A stretch of 35,908 bases of DNA from a virus (taxonomy: Duplodnaviria; Caudoviricetes), in the IMG/VR virus record IMGVR_UViG_3300021966_000007, positions 1 through 35,908 of that record; one strand, 5' to 3'. The translations under genes and the position numbers were made by a program. Every line of letters begins with the position of its first letter. Within the stretch, counting starts at the first letter, position 1. This document shows positions 3,477 to 22,110 of this stretch, piece by piece. The notes below the pieces were generated by a model. It did not search any database. It was not told the origin of the DNA and saw only the letters and a program-made list of their open reading frames with translations.

Positions 3477-4465
3477 TGTTTAATCCAAAAATTATTAAAA
3501 CTGATTATGTTTTAGGAGCTGATCAAGGAGATTCACGCATCGCACAAAGGAAGTATATTATCGCTCATGAATCTGGCTATGATCCAGATACTAAGAAACC
3601 CAATATGCTACTAAATGAAGTACAAAATATGAGCCGAAATCTTAATGTAAACAAAGCATATGTAACTCACTTCGTTGGTTATATGGATAATGCTAACGAA
3701 GCACAAATCTATCAAATTGGTGAGCCTGGATATGTTTCATGGGGAGCCTTGTCAGCTAATCCATATGCACCAGTTCAAATTGAGTTTGCTCGTATTTATC
3801 AGAACAATAAGGATAAATTTAAAAAGGCTTATCATCTATATGTTGATGCACTTCGCTATTTCGCCAATTTATATGGTATTCCTTGTAAACTTGATGAATC
3901 GGGAAATGGTATTAAAACTCATCAATGGGTAACTAATAATTATGGTGGAGACCACGTTGATCCATATGGTTATTTTGAAAGTATGGGAATTAGCAGAAGC
4001 CAATTTAAACATGATGTTGAAAATGGTATTACTGAAACTGTTGTTAATAAGCCAGTCACTAAATCACATATTAATAATATCGTTCAAGTTTTAGGTAAAA
4101 AGGTTGGAGGATATACTACTTACGAGTTAAATGGTAAGGCTAATGAAACGACTGACATTATTCCAAACTCCAGATGGGTATCTAATGCTATTGAGATTAT
4201 CAATAATGAGCCAATGTATTGCATTGGTGGAGATATTTACATTCCACAGTCAGTAACAACATTAGCTAATAAGGCCGTTGTTAATTCTAATATGTCTATT
4301 GATAGCCTGGATAAGAATGGTAAAGCTAATGGTAAACTAAACGCCGGTAGTGACTGGAAGTATTCAGCGCTAACTAATATCCCTAATGTTGGATATTGCT
4401 ACCAAATTGCCACAGATATGTTTCTACCTATTAAATTTACGGTTGGTTCCGTATATAAAGGATAA
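3476..4465 (+). CDS. Endolysin, N-acetylmuramoyl-L-alanine amidase (Amidase_2) with SLAP-like C-terminal repeats
   Basis: Zn-amidase motifs IIAHE, HFV, QIE, KTH and DHVDP. Two C-terminal repeats ending YCIGGDIYIP and YQIATDMFLP. Confidence 0.9.
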   Translation: MFNPKIIKTDYVLGADQGDSRIAQRKYIIAHESGYDPDTKKPNMLLNEVQNMSRNLNVNKAYVTHFVGYMDNANEAQIYQIGEPGYVSWGALSANPYAPVQIEFARIYQNNKDKFKKAYHLYVDALRYFANLYGIPCKLDESGNGIKTHQWVTNNYGGDHVDPYGYFESMGISRSQFKHDVENGITETVVNKPVTKSHINNIVQVLGKKVGGYTTYELNGKANETTDIIPNSRWVSNAIEIINNEPMYCIGGDIYIPQSVTTLANKAVVNSNMSIDSLDKNGKANGKLNAGSDWKYSALTNIPNVGYCYQIATDMFLPIKFTVGSVYKG

Positions 4466-17653: not shown

Positions 17654-17989
17654 ATGACAGTTACAAATGCAAGTATCAAATCAGCAGAAACCAATGGATC
17701 AGGAATGACAATTATTTCAGATATTAATCAAGATTTCAGAGATAGCAAAATTAAGGTTATCCGCCAATTACAAGGCTGGACCGAAGAAGAAAAATTTCAA
17801 CTGGAGTCGATTAAAAGAAATGGCACATTTAATGACGCCATCAAGGATTTAATGTTAAGTGGTAATCCGATTGGATCAAAATATTACTACAGCGATAGAG
17901 ATAGTGAAATTCAGATACTTCAAGATATTATTGATTATTTTGAAGGCAGAGCAATTTTTAATACTGACGATATGAAAGAGGGTAAATAA
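17654..17989 (+). CDS. Hypothetical protein, paralogous to the next gene
   Basis: AGGAGG RBS; GWTEEEK...DIIDYFEG. Confidence 0.7.
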   Translation: MTVTNASIKSAETNGSGMTIISDINQDFRDSKIKVIRQLQGWTEEEKFQLESIKRNGTFNDAIKDLMLSGNPIGSKYYYSDRDSEIQILQDIIDYFEGRAIFNTDDMKEGK

Positions 17990-20190: not shown

Positions 20191-20670
20191 ATGGGGGTTA
20201 TATTAATGGAATTAAAACTACCACAATTACCAGAAATCAATGAGAAGAAGACGATTGAGAATGTTAGAAAGTATTTTGAGAAGGAATATCCTGGCTACGT
20301 CGATCGCTCATCGTTAAGTTCAACATTAATTAAATCCCCAAGTTTTGACCCCGCCGGCGTTAGTTCAGCTGGTTCAAGGAATAGTCAGGATGATAAGGTT
20401 AACAGCTATCTATATGCTAATGAGATTGTAGCGGCAACTGTTCAATGTGTAAGAGAGATTCAAGAGCCATACAAGATTATATTGAACGTTGTTTATATCC
20501 GTAATGAGAGTAATAAGATGGCACAACAAGCTATTGGTTACCAATCAAGCCGGTACAGTGACTTGAAGAACACAGCATTCTTGAAGTTTGCTGCTAAGTT
20601 TCAACGTTTTCATGACTTAAATATCTATAATTCTCAAAAATCGGACACTTATCGGACACTTATCGGTTAG
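20191..20670 (+). CDS. ArpU-family late transcriptional regulator
   Basis: KTIENVRKYF, IKSPSFD and IGYQSSRYSDLKNTAFLKFA; last early gene before the packaging module. Confidence 0.88.
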   Translation: MGVILMELKLPQLPEINEKKTIENVRKYFEKEYPGYVDRSSLSSTLIKSPSFDPAGVSSAGSRNSQDDKVNSYLYANEIVAATVQCVREIQEPYKIILNVVYIRNESNKMAQQAIGYQSSRYSDLKNTAFLKFAAKFQRFHDLNIYNSQKSDTYRTLIG

Positions 20671-20718
20671 TTATCGGTCAATGTTCGGACACTTGTCGGA
20701 TATGTTAAGAGTTATATT
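20641..20718 (+). promoter_or_regulatory. Late promoter with six 11-bp-period activator repeats
   Basis: TCGG at 20641, 20652, 20663, 20674, 20685 and 20696 (unit TCGGACACTTA), then a TATATT -10 at 20713 with no canonical -35. Confidence 0.75.
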
Positions 20719-20896
20719 GGTATTGTCAGATGATATGGATAAGTAATTACTATTCAGTGATACTCTCACACTTCAACGAGAGCACAAATTTAGAAGGACA
20801 CTAATTAAACCGAACATATTTAGATAACCGTTTGGCAAACGTTAAATTGCCATGTAAAAACAACATTAGATAGGTGATGATAAAGCCTATTTATTC

Positions 20897-21008
20897 TGCG
20901 GGTGATGGGTCAAATAAGTAATCATATAAAATATTCCTTCATAAATTTTTTATACTCCCCATATTACAAGTTAAGCCAATTAACTGGGTTCGATTCCCAG
21001 TTCCCGCA
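20897..21008 (+). ncRNA. tRNA-like small RNA (acceptor stem and T-arm, atypical central region)
   Basis: 5' TGCGGG pairs with 3' CCCGCA; AACTGGG-TTCGATT-CCCAGTT T-arm; no recognisable D-arm or anticodon arm. Confidence 0.65.
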
Positions 21009-21157
21009 TAGGTTAGAGATATAAGCAAGAACTAGATGGCAATTAAGCCAATATGTACGTAGAAGGAACACTCAAATTTGAATATCGAATAACTTTGGAG
21101 GAATTTGATGATACGGGGGTATAATCCTAGTTATACGTTAAAGGGGGATTTAATAAA

Positions 21158-21547
21158 ATGAGTGAACAAGATGCATTCGATTTCGTTTATAACCTTCCAA
21201 GTGAAGAAGATATTCTTGAAAGAGTTAAGGGTAATTTTGTTTCGGCTGTTGAAGCTAGTGAAGAATTTGAAATCAATGAGCATTCACAAGTAGCATATAA
21301 CAATATCCAACAGGTAAAGAAGATTATTAATGGCGATAAAAAGAAATGCGAACTAATCAGGGCTAGAGAAAATATAGGTAAAAATGATGCCTATAAGAAT
21401 TATTATGAATATGTAAAAGAGTTGACTAATCATTTATCAGCAAACAAATTAAAGTATTCGATGATAACAATCGAGATAAGTGAAATTGAATCAACAACGT
21501 TAGACCTTTATCCAGACATTTATCATAAATATATAGATTTAAAATAA
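21158..21547 (+). CDS. Moron-like hypothetical protein
   Basis: TATAAT at 21120, AAGGGGG RBS, AT-rich, followed by its own terminator. Confidence 0.75.
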   Translation: MSEQDAFDFVYNLPSEEDILERVKGNFVSAVEASEEFEINEHSQVAYNNIQQVKKIINGDKKKCELIRARENIGKNDAYKNYYEYVKELTNHLSANKLKYSMITIEISEIESTTLDLYPDIYHKYIDLK

Positions 21548-21553
21548 ATTTGG

Positions 21554-21581
21554 AGATCAGTCAGATGACTGGTCTTTTTTT
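21554..21581 (+). terminator. Rho-independent terminator
   Basis: AGATCAGTC-AGAT-GACTGGTCT plus T-run. Confidence 0.8.
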
Positions 21582-21612
21582 ATGCTCAATTAAAGGGAGG
21601 CGGTGGTATGAC

Positions 21613-22110
21613 ATGAAAAAGTTGACAAGCAACCAAAGAAAGTTCGCTGATGAATATATTAAAACTGGTAATGCGACACGCTCATATTTAGCTGCTGGTT
21701 ATAAAGTTAGTGATACTGTTGCTGGCTCAAATGCTAATAGGCTGCTTAAAAATGCTAAGGTCAAGGAATATATTGACATTAAGCTTAAAGAAATCAGCAG
21801 TTCTAAGATAATGGACAGTGTGGAAGTTATGGAACGTTTAACAGCAATGGCAAGAGGAGAAACACCAGATTTCACGGTTGTTACTGTTAAAAAGGCTGAC
21901 ACAATTACGGTTGAGGGCGAGAAAAAGACTTATGACAAGGTTGTTTATAATGAGGAACCTAAGACAGTCATTACACCGACACACAATAGTGATAAAAACA
22001 AAGCACTTGAATTACTTGGAAGACGTTACTCACTCTTCACAGATAAGGTTGATCTAACACAAGGCGATATTAATATCACAATTGGGGAGTATGAAGAAGA
22101 TGGAGATTAA
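21613..22110 (+). CDS. terS: Terminase small subunit
   Basis: LTSNQRKFADEYIKTGNAT..AAGY and KALELLGRRY motifs; GGGAGG RBS. Confidence 0.93.
   Translation: MKKLTSNQRKFADEYIKTGNATRSYLAAGYKVSDTVAGSNANRLLKNAKVKEYIDIKLKEISSSKIMDSVEVMERLTAMARGETPDFTVVTVKKADTITVEGEKKTYDKVVYNEEPKTVITPTHNSDKNKALELLGRRYSLFTDKVDLTQGDINITIGEYEEDGD

Follow-up and report, generated by a model that had tools for sequence, protein, structure and literature searches.

A tRNA-shaped element with unrelated inserts in a temperate phage and in Companilactobacillus prophages, a possible antisense silencer of host defence mRNAs

Introduction

The C4 antisense RNA of phages P1 and P7 is cut by RNase P out of a longer transcript, and its loops occlude ribosome-binding sites (PMC5320573). 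The phage RNA element described here resembles C4: both combine a constant frame with variable loops, and its loops are predicted to pair with ribosome-binding sites. C4 is a three-stem RNA that belongs to the phage's own immunity system (PMC5320573), whereas the predicted targets of the present element are host defence mRNAs. Unlike C4, the element has a true T-loop, an acceptor stem and the remnant of a D arm, and the Rfam C4 model gave no match to it. Its structure is compatible with a C4-like release from a precursor by RNase P.

Another likeness is to the Racr RNA anti-CRISPRs, which are phage small RNAs directed against CRISPR-Cas (PMC10651486). A Racr is a solitary mimic of a CRISPR repeat and binds to Cas proteins (PMC10651486), whereas the present RNA would act on mRNA and on restriction-modification. 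Comparison of the element with the repeats of the two CRISPR arrays of G407, a Companilactobacillus genome, gave no match of at least 11 bases. The Y RNA YrlA also carries a tRNA-like domain that is handled by tRNA enzymes, and such RNAs occur in phages as well (PMC4201824). Y RNAs lie near Ro60 and are not known to have an antisense role. We found no TROVE (Ro60) gene in any of five phage records, and no Rfam Y RNA match.

In engineered tRNA-scaffold expression, a cargo replaces the anticodon arm; the chassis described here differs from it in being natural and in being reloaded between phages. The small RNAs RsaE and RoxS expose C-rich loops complementary to the Shine-Dalgarno sequence (SD) and, unlike our element, have no tRNA frame. 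Phages T4 and T5 carry tRNA-like stable RNAs within their tRNA clusters, and we know of no guide function for these. As far as we know, phages counter restriction and CRISPR with proteins or with RNAs that mimic repeats. The element is neither a C4 RNA nor a tRNA, a tmRNA, a Y RNA or a Racr, and by analogy it would work like C4.

Results

The phage and the neighbourhood of the element

The DNA that we analysed (the window) is the whole record of a temperate phage, 35,908 bases long, with integrase, repressor, replication, packaging, head, tail and lysis genes. To judge from sequence, the host is probably a lactic acid bacterium of the genus Companilactobacillus. In its integrase region the phage shares 80-82% identity with each of six Companilactobacillus prophages, and a spacer in the second type II array of G407 agrees at 27 of 29 bases with positions 3854-3882 of the window, which fall in the endolysin gene. 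We used G407 for target ranking as a genome of the genus and not as a proven host of the phage. Another locus, L001, holds a 5.5-kb copy of the element's region; being identical, it is not independent evidence.

The element lies between an activator gene and the terminase genes, among the following features:

20191..20670, + strand: ArpU/RinA-like transcriptional activator gene (phrog_248, E 5e-27), the upstream neighbour
20629..20713, + strand: six direct repeats with 11-bp spacing, at the activator gene's end (repeat family D1)
20870..20890, + strand: upstream hairpin with ATGATAA in an 11-nt loop, common to many family members
21158..21547, + strand: 129-aa ORF of no known family, between the element and the terminator-like hairpin
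21552..21577, + strand: terminator-like hairpin before terS, the only terminator-like site in 20500-21700
22083..22102, + strand: terL ribosome-binding region, a possible self-target of guide segment B (below) by pairing

From what is known of RinA-type activators, we take the six repeats to be the likely activator-binding sites of a promoter. No terminator-like site was found between the activator gene and the element. The conserved upstream hairpin is a possible protein-binding or antitermination site; in other family members a GGAAA-loop hairpin stands in place of the one with the ATGATAA loop. The 129-aa ORF had no match in PHROG, PADLOC or Atlas, and it is only through its position, in one unit with the element, that it becomes a candidate anti-defence protein. 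On the 3' side of the element, a small hairpin (21033-21052) repeats 10 bases of the element's 3' core (20971-20980).

An acceptor stem and a T-arm without an anticodon arm

Positions 20898-21008 hold a tRNA-shaped element that has an acceptor stem and a T-arm and lacks an anticodon arm:

20898..20904, + strand: 5' acceptor strand, pairs 1-5 perfect
20903..20912, + strand: mini D-hairpin of 3 pairs with GG in its loop, read from the sequence and from homologues
20982..21008, + strand: T-arm, 3' acceptor strand and discriminator A, with no encoded CCA

The original prediction, made from the letters of the window, had TGCGGG (20897-20902) pairing with CCCGCA and stacking on a perfect T-arm. This stack is present: the 3' acceptor strand CCCGC (21003-21007) makes five acceptor pairs, A21008 is the discriminator, and CCA is absent after it. 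The T-arm (20982-21002) has 7 pairs and the loop TTCGATT at 20989-20995, and the five acceptor and seven T-side pairs add up to the 12 stacked pairs that form the top half of a tRNA. The same prediction let about 62 nt replace the D and anticodon arms. The anticodon arm is indeed absent, but the core between acceptor and T stem measures 79 nt and the D arm is reduced. The mini D-hairpin is predicted to keep the D/T elbow contact. Homologues have GG-loop mini-hairpins with different stems; in RNAfold, the 3-pair mini D stem of the window stays unfolded on its own. The seven bases 20898..20904 are also the 5' end of tRNA-Gly(TCC) and tRNA-Leu(TAG) at a locus of the genus, L237.

As had been expected, no canonical tRNA was called: ARAGORN found no tRNA or tmRNA gene in the window, and Rfam found nothing at gathering level (one chance match, E 1.3). 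A canonical tRNA, which has an anticodon arm with a 7-nt loop and a length of 70-95 nt, was rejected on the 79-nt core and on the blank results with ARAGORN and RF00005. A tmRNA was rejected on its third pair, which is G-C and not the alanine identity pair G3-U70, on the missing CCA and on the ARAGORN result. Folding of the whole RNA is unremarkable (z -1.67; 13 of 200 shuffles were equally good), and the reality of the element therefore rests on its homologues.

A family of elements in related prophages

The closest terL relative of the phage (71% identity), a Companilactobacillus prophage at locus L029, carries the chassis in the same gap. This first homologue was found through its terL neighbourhood alone. 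Its chassis has one G-C to A-U pair change and splits the 12-pair stack as 6+6, not 5+7, and its insert is unrelated to that of the window, with a 55-nt core holding CCTCC. Three more near-identical copies were found beyond it.

Among 41 genomes of the genus, the DNA search matched 19 and the motif search 22. The pattern of upstream-hairpin motif plus T-arm gave 34 matches in those 22 genomes, against 8 for the reversed pattern. The 58 loci collected hold 75 distinct T-arm+acceptor elements, many in arrays with true tRNAs, and 20 of the 75, the window's included, are of the long-insert, mini-D type. When 14 elements spanning the types were compared, eight of ten core pair positions were found to take two to four pair types and two were invariant. 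Because the detector required the stem pairs, the evidence lies in this variety of pairs and in the shared position, not in the pairing itself. An ArpU profile search returned 105 proteins, without their genomic context. Of 17 related loci identified through an ArpU alignment, 15 have a T-arm+acceptor element downstream, canonical tRNAs counted.

The inserts are 12-133 nt long and unrelated between families, with little shared sequence; a long insert of the L196 type is conserved across species at seven loci. Short or insert-less versions have cores of 12, 16, 22-25 and about 35 nt. Beyond the genus, matches came from 28 of 351 genomes of the bacterial family; they are mostly short versions, and some of them are host tRNA arrays. 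Minimal versions with cores of 22-23 nt and the same upstream hairpin (L376-L381, in G281, G144, G249, G055 and G326) occur in prophages outside Companilactobacillus, with up to three per genome. A second prophage tRNA-like class has a full D arm, structured inserts of 35-130 nt and no anticodon loop (T-loops at L183:1830, L195:1508, L185:1530, L431:2569 and L380:1813); with this class, hsdR and cas1 starts are not favoured.

A BLAST search of 50,697 phage records with the leader as query gave short chance matches only, and the version from L040 gave none. The long-gap acceptor/T-arm pattern had 21 matches in viral records, of which only the window's twin is relevant, and 119 in genomes, with no family member among the low-GC ones inspected. 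The exact 3'-end motif occurred in none of 401 Lactobacillaceae genomes. A search of literature listings and of the openings of abstracts found no description of the family. In the ArpU-terS region of relatives, the chassis is kept with changed stem pairs and the inserts vary while keeping anti-SD motifs, as the original prediction had anticipated. We conclude that the element family is real and apparently unnamed.

The inserts share an exposed anti-SD motif

TTCCT is present in six of eight insert families (1.2 expected, p~0.006) and TTCCTT in five of the eight (p~0.002); the inserts of L186 and L199 lack the motif. In the RNA, UUCCU is mostly unpaired, with an unpaired probability of 0.76 in the window insert versus 0.48 for the rest. 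Exposed C-rich motifs complementary to the SD, which define trans-acting anti-RBS small RNAs with C-rich loops, are present in the element. All 20 inserts pair better with the SD consensus than do their reverse complements; a generic SD-energy score was not significant per insert.

The reverse complement of the window insert had been read as two SD+ATG initiation regions (20920-20940 and 20937-20960), which open minus-strand ORFs of 12 and 6 codons. Both readings and both ORFs are as described. Scored as complete initiation regions, both segments are weak when taken one by one (7.4 each; p 0.18 against shuffles and 0.08 against intergenic DNA). Such scores are not significant per insert, and the complete combination of anti-SD and anti-AUG is not typical of the family. 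An enrichment of inserts for both anti-SD and CAT patterns thus holds for its anti-SD half, while the anti-AUG part is absent in most related inserts. Three guide segments can be delimited in the window insert:

20923..20940, + strand: guide segment A (UUCCUUC within a hairpin loop), able to pair with the plasmid-type hsdR start
20937..20960, + strand: guide segment B, complementary to the G407/G141 hsdM start and to the phage's own terL start
20952..20974, + strand: guide segment C, able to pair with the G407 hsdR leader and its SD

Segment A is also complementary to some cas1 starts, with a 2-nt bulge, and segment B makes 21 pairs in 25 nt with the hsdM start of G407/G141. A module similar to segment C is present in L222 and L182.

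Predicted targets of the window RNA

We read G407 whole and, after gene calling by a simple script, applied four scoring methods to 2302 start regions; its hsdM and hsdR were identified by PADLOC. The target evidence is all computed, on one host genome and after these four scoring methods, and ranks shift with the method. By accessibility-corrected cofolding, type I hsdM ranked 1 of the 2302 starts and hsdR ranked 14 or 15. By raw duplex energy, hsdM ranked only 83. When both SD motifs were kept fixed and the rest was shuffled, 1-2 of 262 shuffles matched the joint hsdM+hsdR score and 12-19 of 262 reached that of hsdR alone; the shuffle test of hsdM is biased because hsdM was chosen as the top match. 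Among starts with the same SD, hsdM is 1st of 47 and hsdR 6th of 169.

The plasmid hsdR start (plasmid-type hsdR, NZ_CP104716), which was fetched only as a homologue, pairs with segment A, the first of the two initiation-region complements of the original prediction, at a score equivalent to rank 28 of 2302. It is 3rd of 461 like-SD starts, and its score is reached by 23 of 235 motif-fixed shuffles. Its 5' region is found in 147 plasmid records. The segment A motif has three matches in the 41 genomes, all at hsdR starts. Since the motif was written with plasmid hsdR in view and 2.4 chance matches are expected, this result speaks for specificity and not for an excess. A natural hsdR variant pairs worse with the window RNA (rank 145).

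On G407 cas1, the window RNA ranked 397 by duplex energy and 215-239 by cofolding, and the cas1 starts of G295 and L416 fell within the top 0.5%. By alignment z, the phage's own terL (3.6) stands above cas1 (3.0) and hsdR (2.5). We dropped cas2 as a target (rank 10 by duplex energy but 252-271 by cofolding), and Sp-type cas1, cas9, csn2, hsdS, mrr and plasmid hsdM found no support. The proposal that the insert displays guides against the initiation regions of host defence genes is supported in part: the top computed targets include hsdM, hsdR and cas1. In G407, no perfect antisense match extends beyond 14 bases.

Target ranking across insert families

The ranking at the level of the family is the strongest target test. 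Type II cas1 of G407 was first seen in the top six for two inserts. For five related inserts, cas1 ranks 1, 1, 2, 6 and 6 by duplex energy, and it comes first when the five are combined (mean z -3.65; next -2.79). The pairing consists of a 17-pair helix over SD and AUG and of further helices. When 11 insert families were pooled, cas1 took the top rank among the 2302 starts, and the score of the plasmid hsdR start exceeded those of all 2302. Both results hold with or without the window RNA, and none of 698 shuffled sets reaches either of them. The choice of the plasmid hsdR start did not draw on the other ten families; the cas1 and plasmid hsdR starts share the core read by UUCCU, so the two results are not independent. 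With six inserts of other classes, cas1 and plasmid hsdR rank only 59 and 998.

When the discovery families were left out, G407 cas1 ranked 83-205, and 6 of 14 cas1 starts of other species came within rank 62 over a wider scoring interval. In cofolding, the L204 RNA placed cas1 at rank 79, and the RNAs of L196, L183 and L207 had no defence gene in their top 8; L193, L194, L182, L222 and L192 do not enter the cofolding ranks. A looser shared motif had 51 matches in the genus, 7 of them at hsdR or cas1 starts and one at a dehydrogenase-like gene. G165 has a cas1-type guide, but its own cas1 start differs.

Three observations concern the cas loci themselves. The best site of the L183-type insert lies about 110 nt inside cas1, with 19 of 22 pairs, in all three St1-like cas loci (near 4605 in L416 and L417). 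At St1-like loci (L337 near 17790-17900), the tracrRNA terminator and the cas1 SD share a strand and lie 10-25 bases apart, the terminator coming first; cas1 would therefore depend on read-through or on a start of its own. The 3' arm of L204, L230 and L231 equals, at 16 of 17 bases, a repeat-spacer junction of the second G407 array (188983-188999), which may be chance.

Alternative explanations

Anti-defence silencing is the most likely function of the element family, although we would rate it as nearly, and not quite, as probable as its contrary. The insert-less and short versions, often in arrays with true tRNAs, and the L186 and L199 inserts without the motif could instead mean that function resides in the tRNA top half, either as a cleavage signal that punctuates the late transcript or as a decoy for host factors that sense or cut tRNAs, with the insert as tolerated cargo. 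We consider this unlikely: long inserts are conserved across species (the seven loci of the L196 type), and inserts are enriched for one motif and converge on two defence starts.

C-rich-loop small RNAs of Firmicutes pair broadly through SD seeds, and the element might likewise be an antisense RNA that pairs with many host mRNAs or with non-defence genes. Many starts do score close to the top matches, 44 of the 51 shared-motif matches in the genus lie away from known hsdR and cas1 starts, and segment A can pair, in addition, with a surface-protein-like gene at G407 477757. The places of hsdM (1st of 47), hsdR (6th of 169) and plasmid hsdR (3rd of 461) among starts with the same or a like SD argue against such breadth and make it rather improbable.

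The target might also lie in the phage itself. No exact match to a gene start had been noticed in the window, but a partial one exists, with 10 exact bases at the terL ribosome-binding site and about 16 pairs, G-U included, at the terL SD (22083-22098). terL is the best of the phage's 36 own starts, equivalent to rank 9 of 2302, and the RNA could delay or limit terminase in the manner of C4 RNA on P1 mRNA. A best-of-36 at rank 9 has, however, a p of about 0.14. In relatives, no pairing with own terL is seen (ranks 126-720), nor is own terL favoured family-wide (ranks 789-1815). We rate self-regulation as a live though improbable alternative. A decayed tRNA gene or attachment-site relic, or expression of the minus-strand mini-ORFs, would agree with a folding z of only -1.67 and with long-gap scans that mostly return true tRNAs or tRNA 3' relics with chance upstream matches, but is very improbable for an element that lies 15 kb from the integrase, whose stems change in pairs and stay intact, and whose anti-AUG part is absent in most relatives, so that no minus-strand ORF is conserved.

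Discussion

We propose, with a confidence that falls just short of even, that the element is a tRNA-derived gene, with pyrimidine-rich guide segments in place of the anticodon arm, for an antisense RNA that is excised by RNase P and RNase Z and silences host defence mRNAs. Its foremost targets would be the type I restriction-modification genes hsdR and hsdM, with cas1 next in order. Transcription would start from the activator-dependent leader or come by read-through, and the RNA would be cut by RNase P before G20898 and by RNase Z after A21008. Excision by RNase Z is proposed because no CCA is encoded; tRNA processing by RNase P and RNase Z is established in Firmicutes. The GG of the mini D-loop would, with the T-loop, keep the elbow read by both enzymes. 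The tRNA fold would also stabilise the RNA: since Hfq was not found in any of five Companilactobacillus genomes, stability would be supplied by the fold. The exposed C-rich loops would seed on the SD and then zip over the start codon. HsdR/HsdM and Cas1 would be lowered as a result, and this would lead to less restriction of replicating phage DNA and to fewer new spacers.

Timing is the weak step of this mechanism. A late promoter fits poorly with restriction because restriction acts at DNA entry; it better suits a block of spacer gain, or of the restriction of replicating DNA, than a block of restriction at entry. Read-through from an earlier operon, lysogenic expression or packaging would resolve the timing.

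A broader claim, which we put forward with more doubt, is that temperate phages of lactic acid bacteria have converted tRNA genes into an antisense platform that can be reloaded, in which arrays cut from one transcript by host RNase P/Z carry swappable guides and several defence systems (type I restriction-modification, Cas1) are silenced together at the ribosome-binding site without Hfq or a phage protein. If true, the element would offer a compact, Hfq-free knockdown format for fermentation bacteria. The family could then be mined, since the chassis is easily found and the guide points to the target, and inserts for which no target is assigned might lead to more defence genes. The 'broken tRNAs' of phage late leaders would, moreover, gain a function. 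A natural tRNA-scaffold RNA that silences defence mRNAs would, if true, be a third route of counter-defence, and the family a protein-free, multi-target anti-defence class.
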